From sequence record OZ035739.1: a DNA stretch of 39,836 bases, one strand, 5' to 3'. The position numbers were made by a program, and so were the translations under genes. How positions within the stretch are numbered: position 1 is the first letter of the stretch; each line of letters opens with the position of its first letter. The notes under the pieces were generated by a model. It was not told the origin of the DNA and made no database searches. It was given only the letters and a program-made list of their open reading frames with translations. Below are positions 760 through 19,647 of this stretch, piece after piece. The stretch comes from Kayfunavirus AN24P4.

Positions 760-1177
760 GAGAGTGGTCCCTTGGCTAGTGGCAGGACTCCTGTTCGCCT
801 CTGGTTACTGGGTAGCTGACAATAAGTGGGAGGCTAAAGTAAATGAAGAATACATCACGAAACTTGAGGCACGAGAGAGTCAACGAACTGCTATCCAAGC
901 ACGAGTCGATGAAGTCTCAGCGGAGTGGCAGGACAAGATGTCCTCACTGGAAGGCTCTACTGATAGGATTATTAATGACCTTAACCGCGATAACAAGCGG
1001 TTGCTCGTCAAAGTCAAGACCTCAGGTCTCAGCGAGCCAGATTACAGTCGATGCTTCCCTAATGGTCGAGTCGAACTACACCCAGAGACTTCTAAAAGTC
1101 TTATCCGAATAACGCAAGAAGCTGACCTTAAGGAGAAAGCTCTACAGGAAACCATAAGGAGGTTGCGTGGCGAATAA
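737..1177 (+). CDS. i-spanin / Rz-like lysis protein (T7 gp18.5-like)
   Basis: Internal start of the 542..1177 ORF at ATG 737 preceded by aaggagg; [22 protein letters not shown] segment then [18 protein letters not shown] region resembling T7 gp18.5. Confidence 0.8.
843..1112 (+). CDS. o-spanin / Rz1-like lipoprotein embedded in +1 frame of the Rz gene (T7 gp18.7-like)
   Basis: ORF wholly inside the Rz gene in another frame; lipoprotein-type signal [17 protein letters not shown] with Cys lipobox; C-terminal VDASLMVE region as in T7 gp18.7; exact start uncertain (alternative M at 909). Confidence 0.65.
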   Translation: MKNTSRNLRHERVNELLSKHESMKSQRSGRTRCPHWKALLIGLLMTLTAITSGCSSKSRPQVSASQITVDASLMVESNYTQRLLKVLSE

Positions 1178-2936
1178 GAAAACACCTGCTGAAAGACAGG
1201 CAGAAATGACCAAAAGGATGAGGGATGACTTCGTGTTCTTCATCTTCGTTCTATGGAAAGCTCTGAGCCTTCCTGTTCCAACACGCTGCCAGATAGATAT
1301 GTGTAAGAAGCTGGCGGCTGGAGATAATCGCCGCTTCATCCTTCAAGCATTCCGTGGTATTGGAAAGTCGTTCCTGACCTGTGGTTTCGTGGTCTGGAAG
1401 TTATGGAATAACCCGGACTTGAAGTTCATGATTGTGTCGGCCTCAAAGGAACGAGCCGATGCGAACTCCATCTTCATCAAGCGAATCATCGACCTAATGC
1501 CTCAGCTTCAGGACCTCAAACCTAAGCAGGGACAGCGAGATGCGGTTATCAGCTTCGACGTTGGGCCAGCAAAGCCAGACCACTCACCTTCTGTTAAGTC
1601 CGTTGGTATCACTGGTCAGTTGACTGGTAGTCGTGCTGACATCCTGATTGCAGATGACGTGGAGGTTCCTAATAACTCTGCGACTCAGGCTGCACGAGAC
1701 CGTCTGTCAGAGCTTGTTAAAGAGTTCGACGCTATCCTGAAGCCGGGAGGTACAATCATCTATCTGGGTACTCCTCAGAACGAGATGACCCTGTATCGTG
1801 AGCTTGAAGGTCGTGGGTATACCACTACTATCTGGCCAGCTCGTTATCCACGCGACAGGAAGGACTGGCAGTCTTACGGCGACCGTCTGGCTCCTATGCT
1901 TCAGGCAGAGCTGGAAGAGGACCCTGAGTCCTTCTACTGGCGTCCGACTGATGAAGTACGCTTCGATGATACGGACCTGAAGGAACGTGAGCTGTCCTAC
2001 GGTAAAGCTGGCTTCGCTCTACAGTTCATGCTTAACCCGAACCTGAGTGATGCCGAGAAGTACCCTCTTAAGCTCCGTGACCTTATCGTAGCCGACTTGG
2101 ACCCAGCGTCCAGCCCAATGGTCTACCAATGGTTGCCGAACCCTCAGAACAAGCGTGAGGACGTTCCTAACGTTGGACTCATGGGTGACTCGTACCACAC
2201 GTATCAGACTGTAGGTTCTGCCTTCAGCTCATACACCCAGAAGATTCTGGTCATTGACCCTAGTGGTCGTGGTAAGGATGAAACTGGATATGCGGTACTG
2301 TACCAGCTCAACGGCTACATCTTCGCTATGGAAGTTGGTGGCATGCGTGGTGGTTATGAAGACTCTACGCTGGAAGCCTTGGCTAAGATTGGTCGTAAGT
2401 GGAGGGTCAACGAATACGTCATTGAGGGTAACTTCGGTGATGGTATGTACCTTGAGCTATTCAAGCCTGTAGCGGCCCGTATCCATCCTGCGGCTGTAAC
2501 TGAAGTGAAGAGTAAGGGTCAGAAAGAACTACGCATCTGTGACGTTCTGGAGCCTATCATGGGGTCTCACAGACTTATCGTTAACGCTGCTGCTATCGTC
2601 CAAGACTACCAGACAGCCTCTGACAAGGATGGTGTTCGTAACCCTATCTACTCTCTATTCTATCAGATGACACGTATCTCTCGTGAGCGTGGAGCCTTGG
2701 CACACGATGACCGACTTGATGCGCTGGCTATCGGTGTACAGTTCTTCGTTGAGTCGATGGCTAAGGATGCCAACAAAGGCGAACGTGAAGTCACTGAGGA
2801 ATGGCTGGAGGAACAGATGGAGAACCCACGGAAAGGCTTCGAGTCCATCCACACTGAGTTCTGGGACAATGGGGTCCGGGTAACTCACGATACGGACGAC
2901 GAGCTTGGACTAGGGTCATACGTTACGTTCCACTAG
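1167..2936 (+). CDS. large terminase subunit / DNA maturase B (T7 gp19-like)
   Basis: 589-aa ORF, GTG start after aaggagg; extensive collinear similarity to T7 gp19 ([48 protein letters not shown]). Confidence 0.95.
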
Positions 2937-6346: not shown

Positions 6347-9028
6347 ATGAGCGTCATCTCTATTGACAAACACGACTTCTCTGATGTGTCTAACGCCATT
6401 GAGCCGTTTAACCTGCTGGCTGACCACTACGGGCAAGACCTTGCAGTCAAACAGCTTCAGCTTGAGCACGAGGCATACACTGAAGGCGAGCGACGTTTCA
6501 TCAAAAACCTTGAGCGACAGACTGAGCGCGGGGAACTGGCAGACAATCAGGTAGCCCAGCCTTTGATGCAGACTCTGGTCCCTAAGATTGCGCAAGCCGT
6601 CAGGGAGTGGCATGAAGGTCCAGACGGGAAGCTGTCAACCTCTCGTCCGAGCGTATCGTTCACCATGTTAAGCACTGAAGAGAAGGCCGTCAAGGACCGC
6701 TCTCTTCGCATCTCCTGCGAGTCTGCTGCGGTTATCATACTGAAGGTCATCCTCTCCAAGCTGGTCAAGCCTGAAGGTATACCGATTACACCGATGGCCT
6801 CCGCGATAGGTCGCACACTTGAGGATGAAATCCGATTCGGTCGCATTCGTGACAAGGAGAAGGAGCACTTCAAGAAGGCGATAGCTGATAACCTGAACAA
6901 GAGAGCCGGGGCATCATACAAGAAAGCCTACATGCAAGCGGTCGAGACATCCATGCTGGAGCAAGGCCAACTAGAAGATGCGTGGGGAACTTGGAGTCCG
7001 ACCGAGGCTGTCCACGTTGGAATCAAGATGCTGGAGATTGTCATCCAGTCAACACAACTGGTCGAGCTTAAGCGTTACGGTGCTGGCAATGCAGCGGCTG
7101 ACGTTGAGATGGTCCACCTGTCAGACTTCTGGGTCAAGAAGATGGCACAACGCGGCTTCAGCCTTGCGGGTATCGCTCCAGTCTACCAACCTTGCGTAGT
7201 TCCACCTAAGCCGTGGACTGGTGTCGTAGGCGGGGGGTACTGGGCCAAAGGTCGCAGACCATTACCACTGATTCGCTTAGGGTCTAAGTCTGCGGTGGAA
7301 CGTTACGAAGACGTGTATATGCCTGAAGTCTATGACGCTGTTAACATCATCCAGAATACACCTTGGAAAGTGAACAAGAAGGTTCTGGACGTGGTGAACA
7401 TGGTCGAGAAGTTGAACAACACGCCTATTGATGACATCCCTCAGATGGAGCCACTGAAGCCTGAAGAATATGCGGGTGAGACTGAAGAGGAACTCAAGGC
7501 GTGGAAGAAAGCGGCTGCTGGTATCTATCGCCGCGAGAAGGCCAGACAGTCACGCAGGTTGTCGCTGAGCTTTATCGTTAACCAAGCGAACAAGTTCTCT
7601 CAGTTCAAGGCCATCTGGTTCCCGTATAACATGGACTGGCGCGGTCGCGTCTACGCTGTGCCGATGTTCAACCCTCAGGGTAACGACATGCAAAAGGGTC
7701 TCCTGACTCTGGCAGTCGGTAAGCCTATTGGTGCTGATGGTTTCAAATGGCTGAAGGTCCACGGGGCAAACTGTGCGGGTGTCGATAAAGTCACCTTCGA
7801 GGAGCGCATCAAGTGGGTGGAAGACAACCACGACAACATCATGGCTGCTGCTAAGGCACCGATGGATAGCATTGAGTGGTGGGGCAAGTTAGACTCTCCT
7901 TTCTGCTTCCTTGCGTTCTGCTTCGAGTATGCTGGCGTGATGCACCACGGATTGTCTTACTCCTGCTCGCTGCCGATAGCTTTCGATGGGTCCTGCTCTG
8001 GGATTCAGCACTTCAGCGCTATGCTTCGTGACCACATCGGTGGACATGCAGTAAACCTAACGCCATCCGGTAAGGTCCAAGACATCTACCGCATCGTGTC
8101 TGACCGCATTGAGGAGGAGCTTAAAGTCCTGCTGGTTAACGGCACGGATAACGAGATGGTAACTCACGAGGACAAGAAAACTGGTGAGATTACCGAGCGT
8201 CTCAAGCTGGGGACACGAGAGCTGGCCCGGCAGTGGCTGACTTACGGTATGTCACGCAAGGTTACTAAGCGCTCAGTCATGACTCTGGCCTATGGGTCGA
8301 AAGAGTACGGCTTTGCAGACCAAGTTTACGAGGACATCGTGATGCCAGCGATTGACTCAGGGTCTGGCGCTATGTTCACTGAACCAAGCCAAGCGTCTCG
8401 CTTCATGGCTAAGATGATTTGGGAAGCTGTGAGTGTGACCGTAGTTGCTGCAGTTGACGCGATGAAGTGGCTTCAAGGTGCTGCCAAGCTGCTGGCGGCT
8501 GAAGTGAAGGACAAGAAGACTGGAGAAATCCTGAAGCCTTGCCTTCCGGTACACTGGGTCACACCTGATGGGTTCCCGGTCTGGCAGGAATACCGCAAGA
8601 AGGATACCACTCGTCTGAACCTGATGTTCTTAGGGTCCTTCAACCTTCAGCCTACCGTCAACAAAGGCACGAAGAAGGAGTTGGATAAGCACAAGCAGGA
8701 GTCAGGAATTAGCCCGAACTTCGTCCACTCACAAGATGGTAGCCATCTCCGCAAGACTGTAGTCCACACTCACCGCAAGTATGGCGTGATGTCATTCGCA
8801 GTGATTCACGATAGCTTCGGGACCATCCCGGCTGACGCTGAGTATCTGTTCCGTGGTGTCCGTGAGACGATGGTCGAGACCTACCGCGATAACGATGTGC
8901 TGCTTGACTTCTACGAGCAGTTTGAATACCAACTTCATGAGAGCCAGCGCGACAAGTTGCCTGAGCTTCCGAAGAAAGGTAAACTGAATATTGAGGACAT
9001 TCTATCTTCAGACTTTGCATTCGCTTAA
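6347..9028 (+). CDS. single-subunit DNA-dependent RNA polymerase (T7 gp1-like)
   Basis: 893-aa ORF collinear with T7 RNAP over its whole length (FGRIRD, PWTG..GGGYWA, FPYNMDWRGRVYA, GIQHFSAMLRD, HDSFGT, C-terminal SDFAFA). Confidence 0.97.
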   Translation: MSVISIDKHDFSDVSNAIEPFNLLADHYGQDLAVKQLQLEHEAYTEGERRFIKNLERQTERGELADNQVAQPLMQTLVPKIAQAVREWHEGPDGKLSTSRPSVSFTMLSTEEKAVKDRSLRISCESAAVIILKVILSKLVKPEGIPITPMASAIGRTLEDEIRFGRIRDKEKEHFKKAIADNLNKRAGASYKKAYMQAVETSMLEQGQLEDAWGTWSPTEAVHVGIKMLEIVIQSTQLVELKRYGAGNAAADVEMVHLSDFWVKKMAQRGFSLAGIAPVYQPCVVPPKPWTGVVGGGYWAKGRRPLPLIRLGSKSAVERYEDVYMPEVYDAVNIIQNTPWKVNKKVLDVVNMVEKLNNTPIDDIPQMEPLKPEEYAGETEEELKAWKKAAAGIYRREKARQSRRLSLSFIVNQANKFSQFKAIWFPYNMDWRGRVYAVPMFNPQGNDMQKGLLTLAVGKPIGADGFKWLKVHGANCAGVDKVTFEERIKWVEDNHDNIMAAAKAPMDSIEWWGKLDSPFCFLAFCFEYAGVMHHGLSYSCSLPIAFDGSCSGIQHFSAMLRDHIGGHAVNLTPSGKVQDIYRIVSDRIEEELKVLLVNGTDNEMVTHEDKKTGEITERLKLGTRELARQWLTYGMSRKVTKRSVMTLAYGSKEYGFADQVYEDIVMPAIDSGSGAMFTEPSQASRFMAKMIWEAVSVTVVAAVDAMKWLQGAAKLLAAEVKDKKTGEILKPCLPVHWVTPDGFPVWQEYRKKDTTRLNLMFLGSFNLQPTVNKGTKKELDKHKQESGISPNFVHSQDGSHLRKTVVHTHRKYGVMSFAVIHDSFGTIPADAEYLFRGVRETMVETYRDNDVLLDFYEQFEYQLHESQRDKLPELPKKGKLNIEDILSSDFAFA

Positions 9029-16587: not shown

Positions 16588-18603
16588 ATGTTTGACCTTA
16601 AGAGTATCTGGGGTTCTGACATAGAGACCAACGGTCTCCTTGATACAGTCTCCCAGTTTCACTGTGGGGTCCTGATTAACGCCGAGTCGAATGAGACCCT
16701 TAAGTACGGGGTAGCTCCGATGGTCGGTATCGTCGGTGGCTTCAAAGAGTATGTTCATAAAGTGGAAGAGATTGCCGCATCGCCTGATGGTATGCTGGTA
16801 TTCCACAACGGTATCAACTATGACGTCCCGGCTATTGACAAGCTGAAGCGTCTGTACTTTGGGAAACGATTTAACTTCCCGAAACACAAGATGATTGATA
16901 CCTTGGTGCTGGGTCGCTTGATGTATCCAAACATTAAGTTCTCAGACATGGGCGCAGTGAAATCTGGTCGTCTGCCACCTAAGATGATGGGACGCCAGTC
17001 TCTTGAGGCTTGGGGCTATCGTCTCGGTGAGATGAAAGGTGAGTACAAACACGATTACGTTGCCAAGTGCAAGGCTGAAGGTATCGAATATAAGGCTGGG
17101 GACGAATGGTTGTTCCCGTCTCAGGAGATGCTGGACTATAACGTTCAAGACGTTGTGGTCACACTGGCGTTGTTCAAGAAGTTCCTGACTGACAAGTATT
17201 ACTTCCAGTCTGAACAGTTCGCTTTCGACCAGATTTATGCGTTGCGTCTGGAACATGACGCTGCTTGGACCTGTGCGAAGATGGAGCGTAACGGCTATCC
17301 GATGAACACCGAGATGGTTGAAGGCTTATATCGTGAACTCACCGTCAAACGTGCGGAGCTGCTGGACAAGCTGCGTTCGACTTTCGGCAGCTGGTATGCA
17401 CCAAAGGGAGGCAAGGAGTTCTTCAGGCACCCACGGACAGGTAAGGACCTTCCGAAGTATCCGCGAGTCGTGTATCCTAAGGTCGGGTCAGTATTCAAGA
17501 AGCCGAAGAACAAAGCTCAACGCTTAGGTCTGGAGCCTTGCGAGTTCGACTCACGAGACACGATGGAGGGAGCACCGTTCACACCTATCACTTACGTTGA
17601 GTTCAATCCGGGGAGCGGAGACCACTTAGCGAAAGTCTTGATGGAGCGTGGCTGGGAACCTGTGGACTTCACTGACACCGGGAAACCTGTAGTCGATGAC
17701 GAGACGTTAGAACACGTTAAGTTGCCAGACGAAGAGGCTCAGGCTTGCGTAGAGCTGGTCCGTGAGTATTTGGTAGTCCAGAAGCGCATCGGTCAGGCTG
17801 CTGAAGGTAAGAACGCATGGTTGAAACTTGTAGGCCCAGACGGACGTATGCACGGTTCAATCAACCCTTGTGGTGCAGTAACAGGACGTGCGACCCATAG
17901 CTCACCAAACATGGCTCAGGTTCCTGCTAACGGTGCTCCGTATGGTGAGACTTGCCGTGGTGCTTTCGGTGCAGCGTGGAACAAGAAGGACGGTGAGCCA
18001 GACCCTTGGATTCAAGTAGGCGTGGATGCTTCAGGTCTTGAGCTTCGTTGTCTGGGGAACCGAGCGGCTCCGTTTGATGGTGGAGACTATGCGAAGACTG
18101 TGGTCGAAGGGGACATCCACTGGGCCAACGCAGTAAACGCTGGGTTAGCACCTAACGTCCCACGCGATAAGTCGAACCACGACCATGAGGCTTTCCGCAA
18201 CAACGCCAAGACGTTCATCTATGCGTTCCTGTATGGCGCAGGGGCCGCTAAGATTGGACTTATAGTCGGCGGTGGTAAGAAGGAAGGTTCAGCTCTCATG
18301 AAGAAATTCATTGAGGGTACACCAGCCATCAAGGACCTCAGGGAAGCTGTGAGTAATACGTTAATATCAGACTCTAAGTGGGTGGACGGTGAGAACATCG
18401 TCAAGTGGAAACGCCGCTGGCTGAAAGGTCTAGATGGTAGACGTATCCACATCCGGTCGCCACACTCAGCACTTAACGCTCTACTTCAGGGTGATGGTGC
18501 GGTAGTCTGTAAGCACTGGATTGTCGAGACCGAGCGTATGCTGGAAGCCGAAGGATATGTCCACGGCTGGGATGGAGACTTTGCGTACATGGCATGGGTG
18601 CAT
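16588..18603 (+). CDS. DNA polymerase (T7 gp5-like), exon 1
   Basis: Start at ATG 16588 after ggagg; collinear with T7 gp5 (SDIE.N.LL, FHNG..YDVPA, KSGRLP, NP.GAVTGRATH, DASGLELRC, KTFIYAFLYGAG, DGDFAYMAWVH) but the frame ends at TAA directly after ...AWVH, 51 codons short of the T7 C-terminus. Confidence 0.9.
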
Positions 18604-19201
18604 TAACATCATGGTGCACATTAAATCTGGTGAACTCGGTGAACTCCTAATGGGACAATACCGAGCCAAGCCATAGGGAGGATGTATGAGAGGCAAGAAG
18701 TTAATTCTTGAGGCCACTGAGACTGGCTGCATAATCCCTACGTCACATAAATTGAATCAGGATGGATACTTCCGAAAGAGGACTAACGGTGTCCTTGAGA
18801 TGTATCATAGAACTGTATGGATTAAAGCTAATGGTCCAATACCTGAAGGTTTCGAAGTAGACCACAAGTGTCGGAATAGAGCTTGTTGCAACGTCGAACA
18901 TCTACAAGTATTAGACCGGGACTCACACTTAGTAAAGACCAACCAAGAGCGATACGCTGCTAGGAAGCTAGAAGCACGAGACTACTGGGTAGATACTGGG
19001 TGTACTGGAACGAAGTTAGCCGAAATATTCAATGTGTCGTTCTCAGCCGCCTGTGGGTGGATTAGGGAGTGGAAGGCGTAGAGACTATCCGAAAGGAGTA
19101 GGGCCGTGGGTGAGATTCCCACGTAACCCGAAGCGCCAGACAGTCACCTCAAAGACTGATGATATAGTCCGACACTTCCAGTAATGGGAGAATACAGAAA
19201 G
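18604..19201 (+). mobile_element. intervening sequence in the DNA polymerase gene, probably a self-splicing group I intron carrying an HNH endonuclease ORF
   Basis: About 598 nt between in-frame exon 1 end (...GTG CAT) and exon 2 start (GAT GAG...); last exon-1 base is T (U) and last intervening base is G, as at group I splice sites; contains an independent ORF with its own RBS; AT-rich. Confidence 0.7.
18686..19081 (+). CDS. HNH homing endonuclease (intron-encoded)
   Basis: 131-aa ORF with RBS gggagg; HNH-type motif (EVDHKCRNRACCNVEHLQ); lies entirely inside the intervening sequence in a different frame from the polymerase. Confidence 0.8.
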   Translation: MRGKKLILEATETGCIIPTSHKLNQDGYFRKRTNGVLEMYHRTVWIKANGPIPEGFEVDHKCRNRACCNVEHLQVLDRDSHLVKTNQERYAARKLEARDYWVDTGCTGTKLAEIFNVSFSAACGWIREWKA

Positions 19202-19357
19202 GATGAGTTACAGATTGCTTGTCGTACTCAAGAAATAGCAGAACGTACAGTCGAAATTGCTCAGCTTGCTATGCGTAAGGTGGGTGAGTTCTATAACTTT
19301 AAATGTGTCCTTGATACCGAAGGTAAGATTGGACCAACGTGGAAGGAGTGTCACTAA
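19202..19357 (+). CDS. DNA polymerase (T7 gp5-like), exon 2
   Basis: 51 codons DELQIACRTQEIAERTVEIAQLAMRKVGEFYNFKCVLDTEGKIGPTWKECH match the T7 gp5 C-terminus (DEIQVGCRTEEIAQ...LLDTEGKMGPNWAICH), in frame with exon 1 once the intervening sequence is removed. Confidence 0.85.
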   Translation, partial: DELQIACRTQEIAERTVEIAQLAMRKVGEFYNFKCVLDTEGKIGPTWKECH

Positions 19358-19647
19358 TGGCTATGACCAAACGTATGCGAGTTTCGTTCTCGCTGGGTGC
19401 TGTGTTGTCAACTGAAAACGTGGAGAACTTCAAGAAGACTCTCTGCGAGCTTAGCCGTAAGGTCCTCAACGGAGAGAAGACCACTGGTTTTGAGCGTAAG
19501 ATGGTAGAGGTTGGTGTGACTGAAGGTCTGGAAGCTGTAGTAGAATTGATCTTCAAGAAAGGTATCGTCGAGGGGCTGAAAGAAGACCTGAGCAGTTACG
19601 CTGACCAGCCAAGCTTTGGTAACTTCCGGGTGGAGTTCGAACGATGA
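19357..19647 (+). CDS. gp5.5-like protein (H-NS-binding protein family)
   Basis: Start MAMTKRMRVSF at ATG 19357 overlapping polymerase stop (TAATG); resembles T7 gp5.5 (MAMTKKFKVSF...). Confidence 0.8.
   Translation: MAMTKRMRVSFSLGAVLSTENVENFKKTLCELSRKVLNGEKTTGFERKMVEVGVTEGLEAVVELIFKKGIVEGLKEDLSSYADQPSFGNFRVEFER

Follow-up and report, generated by a model that had tools for sequence, protein, structure and literature searches.

A predicted mobile group IA2 intron with an HNH endonuclease gene in motif C of the DNA polymerase gene of Kayfunavirus AN24P4

The DNA polymerase gene of Kayfunavirus AN24P4 (OZ035739.1; all 39,836 nucleotides were analysed and are called the window here) is interrupted within motif C by a segment that is almost certainly a mobile group I intron of subgroup IA2, from which splicing is predicted to restore the polymerase reading frame (Table 1). 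The element is already known and the window is another isolate carrying it, which makes it one more case of an essential phage gene with a mobile intron in its catalytic centre and adds no new principle. The main consequence lies in annotation: the polymerase gene model that we read from the sequence is join(16588..18603,19202..19357), with the start placed by colinearity with the K1F CDS; translation probably does not begin at the listed GTG of 16552.

Table 1. Positions in the window of the polymerase exons, the predicted intron, its endonuclease gene and the helices of the proposed ribozyme.
Feature	Position	Strand	Sequence or detail	Basis
DNA polymerase (gp5) exon 1	16588..18603	+		ORF list, Pfam DNA_pol_A, colinearity with T7 gp5
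Group I (IA2) intron, predicted	18604..19201	+	598 nt	RF00028, covariation, MFE fold, absent from T7/Peacock alleles
DNA polymerase exon 2	19202..19357	+	51 codons + stop	alignment with T7 gp5 654-704 and Peacock
HNH homing endonuclease gene	18686..19081	+	131 aa, in P6a loop	Pfam HNH_3
P1	18598-603 / 18614-619	+	GUGCAU / internal guide GUGCAC	sequence reading
P10	18609..18612 / 19203-19206	+	guide UCAU / exon 2 AUGA	sequence reading
P3	18626..18632 / 19134-19140	+	UCUGGUG / CGCCAGA	covariation
P4	18635-40 / 18660-65	+		alignment + MFE fold
P5	18645-48 / 18652-55	+	A-rich J4/5 and J5/4	alignment + MFE fold
P6	18666-67 / 19075-76	+		alignment
P6a	18671-74 / 19069-72	+		alignment
P7	19081-88 / 19164-19170	+	G19081, bulged A19082, GACUAU 19083-88	covariation
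P7.1	19089-96	+	CC-GAAA-GG	alignment + MFE fold
GUA linker	19098-100	+	GUA	alignment + MFE fold
P7.2	19101-29	+		alignment + MFE fold
P8 hairpin	19141..19158	+	CAGUC/GACUG	alignment
P9 hairpin	19175..19190	+	CUUCC/GGGAG	covariation
Terminal G (ωG)	19201	+	G	sequence reading

Interruption of the polymerase gene

In the list of open reading frames, the gp5-like frame ends in ...DFAYMAWVH and is followed at once by TAA (18604-18606), and 598 nt further on the polymerase C-terminus resumes as 51 codons and a stop (DELQIACRT...KECH; in full, exon 2 reads DELQIACRTQEIAERTVEIAQLAMRKVGEFYNFKCVLDTEGKIGPTWKECH and then stops). Exon 1 matches Pfam DNA_pol_A, and the protein obtained when 18603 is joined to 19202 is colinear with residues 4-704 of T7 gp5 at 55% identity. 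The junction falls between the His and the Asp of the VHDE motif, that is between H653 and D654 of T7 in polymerase motif C (which we take to correspond to H881/D882 of Pol I), and exon 2 opens with the catalytic Asp-Glu of this motif. Both T7 and Kayfunavirus Peacock are intron-less and run uninterrupted across the insertion site, GT.CA(T/C) being followed directly by GATGA.

An earlier sequence-only reading of this DNA had the gp5-like frame stopping after AWVH and resuming in frame at 19202, and its coordinates were all verified. The alignment that it proposed with intron-less T7-like polymerases was run with T7 and Peacock and defines the insertion site as the H653-D654 boundary of T7. The junction that it expected, GTGCAT joined to GATGAG, is the sole join that restores the conserved VHDE motif; the predicted ligated junction is ...GGGTGCAT joined to GATGAGTTA.... 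The bases that it had cited as fitting the splice-site rules of group I introns are present, with U as the last base of exon 1 and G as the last base of the insert. Its description of the segment as AT-rich holds marginally and is an overstatement (46.7% GC in 18604..19201 vs 49.9% in the window); exon 2 is lower still, at 42.3%.

The inserted segment contains an independent ORF of 131 aa with its own ribosome-binding site, as had been claimed: GGGAGG lies at 18676-81, four bases before the ATG, and the product matches Pfam HNH_3 (58 bits, E 7e-16) with the HNH at residues 40-81 (VDHKCRNRACCNVEHL). The protein is 98.5% identical to the ‘homing endonuclease’ of K1F. A sequence search of the PDB with the HNH protein returned chance-level matches alone (E > 0.5) and no solved close relative.

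An intein, a programmed frameshift or readthrough joining the coding segments would account for the interruption of the gene and has nothing else to recommend it. All three are rejected on the in-frame TAA at the start of the insert, the stops in the polymerase frame and the independent ORF with its own ribosome-binding site; a Pfam search found no intein domains, and the earlier exclusion of an intein stands.

A group I core and its covariation

The Rfam model RF00028 matches the region at full length in a permissive scan over 18594..19191 (model positions 1-253) with 35.6 bits, giving an E value of 2.6e-7 on 801 nt and of 1.3e-5 when searched on the whole window, where it is the sole group I match. 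A default Rfam scan of the window at the gathering score reported nothing, the match lying below the gathering score of 50. We attribute the low score to the ORF, an insertion of about 450 nt that appears in the RF00028 alignment after P6, because ORF-less relatives that align with the window core pass the threshold (58.9-83.6 bits). The structure was drawn by hand from the window sequence and every pair was verified as a standard pair. With the ORF deleted, the minimum-free-energy (MFE) fold of the core contains P1, P3, P4, P5, P6, P6a, P7.1, P7.2, P8 and P9 and reproduces every nested helix (z = -3.0).

Subgroup IA2 is recognised by two helices, P7.1 and P7.2, that are joined by G-U-A and lie between P7 and the 3′ strand of P3 (PMC3428280). 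The window intron has P7.1, GUA and P7.2. The window allele is missing P2, which is present in the Klebsiella and Edwardsiella homologues.

Based on a blastn search with the ORF-deleted ribozyme, which found 52 phage records (40 at 80% or more coverage), homologues were fetched from the same polymerase site (CHRF_10037, Bas102, 13a, Aeromonas PT2, Klebsiella RCIP0053 and Edwardsiella DT115P1), from a different site of a polymerase gene (the ORF-less homologue of Salmonella phage Arash) and from other genes (Klebsiella Henu2_3 terminase, a Rhizobium phage ribonucleotide reductase and Klebsiella RCIP0099). In the alignment of 11 sequences, the 60 pairs in 13 helices are paired in 95.3% of cells, compared with 37-49% in slid controls with the 3′ partners moved by 1-3 columns, a comparison that is biased in favour of the proposed structure by its having been drawn from the window sequence. 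The count of compensatory pairs is free of that bias: 32 of the 60 pairs changed on both sides. None of 500 shuffles (0/500) matched any observed measure. P3, P4, P6, P7, P7.1, the inner helix of P7.2 and P9 are paired in 100% of cells.

At the 5′ splice site, the last 6 nt of exon 1 (GUGCAU) make up the 5′ strand of P1, which ends in the wobble pair U18603·G18614. A U·G pair is kept at this position in 10/10 scorable homologues, those in other host genes included; compensatory changes occur in 5/6 pairs of P1, and the rest of the helix covaries with the host exon. P3 and P7, of 7 bp each, form a pseudoknot and have compensatory changes in five and three pairs, respectively. By analogy with P7 of Tetrahymena, we presume that G19083-C19169 is the guanosine-binding pair. 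Compensatory change affects 3/4 pairs of P6a, in which CCAU/GUGG becomes ACUG/CAGU in the Klebsiella and Edwardsiella phages, and 5/5 pairs of P9. At P8, the Aeromonas, Klebsiella and Salmonella homologues have helices that differ entirely from that of the window. P10 is just 4 bp long in the window allele; in Bas102 and 13a it is 7 bp long and covaries with a synonymous GAA/GAG change in exon 2 (AUUUCAU/AUGAAAU vs AUCUCAU/AUGAGAU). The intron as drawn opens with the in-frame UAA and closes with a terminal G (ωG).

The HNH ORF sits between the two strands of P6a, in a peripheral loop as had been anticipated. With its final codons, W-K-A-stop, the ORF also supplies the 3′ strands of P6a and P6, J6/7 and the first pair of P7, and we explain the C-terminal WIREWK, which is invariant in all homologues, by this double use of the end codons as ribozyme strands. 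A secondary-structure search for a group I core, which the sequence-only reading had named as a check, found a full one (RF00028, MFE fold and covariation), and its interpretation of the segment as a group I intron with an HNH endonuclease gains support from the complete ribozyme fold and the covariation.

Known relatives, splicing and homing

Over 18300..19500 the window is 96.5% identical to K1F (DQ111067 / AM084414, genes 5 / 5.3), and it represents a K1F-like Kayfunavirus. The K1F element is like that of the window in gene, site and intron length (598 nt), and its ribozyme core is 100% identical, as are those of 11 other records. The intron is 98-100% identical between the two, whereas the last 300 nt of exon 1 are only about 90% identical; the window is therefore a different Kayfunavirus isolate with the same intron. 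In DQ111067 the polymerase is annotated as a two-piece joined CDS with a ‘homing endonuclease’ inside, the records of 13a and Bas102 likewise have a joined polymerase CDS, and a ‘putative group I intron’ of K1F is mentioned in PMC4925675. Together with PMC3428280, these records bear out the earlier statement that introns with HNH endonucleases in polymerase genes of T7-like phages are a known class.

The T7-like phages ΦI and W31 (J Bacteriol 186:8153; I-TslI) have experimental splicing data, whereas splicing of the window intron is predicted from its sequence. Splicing of their polymerase introns is reported both in vivo and in vitro (Bonocora & Shub 2004, cited in PMC3428280), and they are described there as IA2 introns at Pol I site 881 with an HNH ORF in P6a. 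With these introns (AY769989 / AY769990) the window intron shares subgroup IA2 with P7.1/P7.2, the HNH ORF in P6a and site 881, a likeness of site and architecture.

If the insertion did not splice, the gene would yield either two associating polypeptides, a 672-aa N-piece and a C-piece started at ATG 19184, or the truncated enzyme alone. This ATG is in frame with exon 2 and opens a 57-aa ORF, and the C-piece is annotated as a separate gene in some records (‘gp5.4’ in K1F AM084414). However, such a split would part the His from the catalytic Asp-Glu of motif C, the ATG is located inside the P9 hairpin and lacks a Shine-Dalgarno sequence, and a group I core kept through many compensatory substitutions would be unexplained if it were not a ribozyme. 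Moreover, splicing has been shown for introns that share this site and architecture (PMC3428280). We consider a non-splicing insertion very unlikely.

A former intron that has decayed, splicing inefficiently in a phage that relies on a helper or on residual activity, is still harder to credit, and we judge it extremely improbable. A seemingly decayed copy exists elsewhere, in Citrobacter phage NS1, with mutations in P6, P7 and P7.1. In the window, by contrast, all core pairs are intact, the core is the one shared without change by K1F and the 11 other records, and gene 5, which encodes the polymerase, is essential in T7-like phages. We infer splicing of the window intron from the published splicing of the ΦI and W31 introns, from the essentiality of gene 5 and from the complete identity of the ribozyme to that of K1F, a viable phage.

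For an intron that splices, we propose the following course. In the pre-mRNA, the exon end GUGCAU would pair with the guide GUGCAC to form P1, with the U·G wobble at the splice site, and an exogenous guanosine bound at G19083-C19169 of P7 would attack after U18603. P10 (UCAU/AUGA) would align exon 2, ωG would then occupy the guanosine site, and the exons would be ligated to ...GUGCAU-GAUGAG..., restoring a full-length gp5-like polymerase and hence motif C. Ribosomes would be stopped at the splice site, and so kept out of the ribozyme, by the UAA that forms the first intron codon in frame, and the HNH ORF would be translated from its own ribosome-binding site. When relatives co-infect, the HNH enzyme would presumably cut or nick their intron-less polymerase alleles, with repair copying the intron in (homing); the patchy occurrence of the intron and its higher identity than that of the exons, described below, lend this activity indirect support.

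Group IA2 introns with HNH endonucleases also occur in the family-A DNA polymerase genes of SPO1/SP82 (I-HmuI/II), Bastille (I-BasI) and Pf-WMP3 (I-PfoP3I), the ORF of Pf-WMP3 lying in P6a as in the window; these introns differ in their site (Pol I 674/676 vs 881), their hosts and their distinct HNH subfamilies (PMC3428280). In further T7-like phages, the polymerase introns owe their mobility to an HNH endonuclease directed at the site of insertion, as proposed for the window. Those introns contain no ORF and the endonuclease gene is free-standing beside the polymerase gene, whereas that of the window is internal to the intron. No feature departing from the described class was found in the window intron.

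Distribution among phages and annotation of related records

The polymerase region (18300..19500) is matched by 236 records and the ribozyme core, at 80% or more coverage, by 40; the distribution of the intron among relatives is patchy. At the same site, the intron is found in Teseptimavirus 13a, Bas102-104, JeanTinguely and others, with a ribozyme that is 85-94% and an HNH protein that is 76-78% identical to those of the window. The Teseptimavirus intron differs in its longer P1 loop and 7-bp P10, and the host polymerase exons are just 63-67% identical, which suggests that the intron was transferred between genera. Compared with 13a, identity is 63-67% in the exons, 85-93% in the ribozyme and 72% in the HNH gene. 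We also compared 18304..19357 with three relatives (L001, L006 and L007) and find the intron better conserved than the exons, both within Kayfunavirus and against Teseptimavirus, a pattern that fits horizontal spread between genera.

A further reading is that the intron is moving between T7-like genera now, that the HNH enzyme serves as a weapon in competition and that the overlap at the ORF end couples translation to folding; we regard this combination as doubtful. Present movement is suggested by the higher identity of the ribozyme (85-94%) than of the exons between Kayfunavirus and Teseptimavirus, and coupling by the overlap of the ORF C-terminus with P6a, P6, J6/7 and P7. If the enzyme were such a weapon, it would act on the polymerase of co-infecting phages that have no intron, excluding their markers at its catalytic centre, and would not be a neutral parasite.

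As the ORF lowers the Rfam score and the default scan misses the intron, many related records show the polymerase as truncated or as two genes. Two small ORFs of K1F-type records appear to be artefacts of the unrecognised intron. The 50-aa ‘unknown’ ORF of K1F DQ111067 (19032..19184 in the window) overlaps P6 to P9, has no Pfam match and is probably not a gene. The 57-aa ‘gp5.4’ of AM084414 (19184..19357) is the second exon of the polymerase, and its start, which lies within P9, is spurious.

Among the homologues, Salmonella phage Arash (OQ632216) has an ORF-less IA2 intron at 1338-1608 (Rfam 58.9 bits) within a family-A polymerase, whose two parts appear in the record as separate genes, ‘DNA polymerase nu’ and ‘theta’. 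If the intron were excised between ...ACCUU and the aligned ωG, motif B would be restored by joining ...KSVTF to GLLYG, at a site that differs from that of the window. The P6a loop of this intron retains a Shine-Dalgarno sequence and an AUG, followed by only a short ORF, possibly the remnant of an endonuclease gene. In Klebsiella phage Henu2_3 (PQ394119), the region of the large terminase subunit contains two group I introns (1140-1385 and 2094-2312; 64.4 and 59.6 bits). The record divides this region into separate ‘terminase’ CDSs, and a GIY-YIG gene lies a short way downstream. In the first Henu2_3 intron, the P1 guide matches the terminase exon (GACGAU/GUCGUC), yet the P1 loop, UAACAUCAUG, is identical to that of the window intron. 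Related IA2 introns were also found in Rhizobium phage RHph_N3_13 (1126-1375, 83.6 bits) and Klebsiella phage RCIP0099 (1149-1357, 70.6 bits); the interrupted gene is that of a ribonucleotide reductase in one case and is unannotated in the other, and neither insertion is marked as an intron.

The NS1 record (MN715150.2) contains at 801-1408 a K1F-type copy of the intron with an intact HNH ORF and an altered core, in which P6 has a 10-nt insertion, AUAGUC of P7 is changed to AUACUC, and P7.1 and P7.2 also carry changes. The sequence after ωG is not polymerase exon 2. As the copy is found close to where the record begins, either decay of the intron or a fault in the assembly could account for it. 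In Salmonella phage CHRF_10037, the match to 18300..19500 spans 1455 bases vs 1201 and is in two pieces, so this phage has about 250 extra bases close to where gene 5 ends or gene 5.5 begins.

The window itself looks like a complete K1F-like genome in permuted order. It has an ORF of 589 aa at 1167..2936 and an RNA-polymerase-sized ORF of 893 aa at 6347..9028, the latter lying roughly 3 kb further in than gene 1 of T7.
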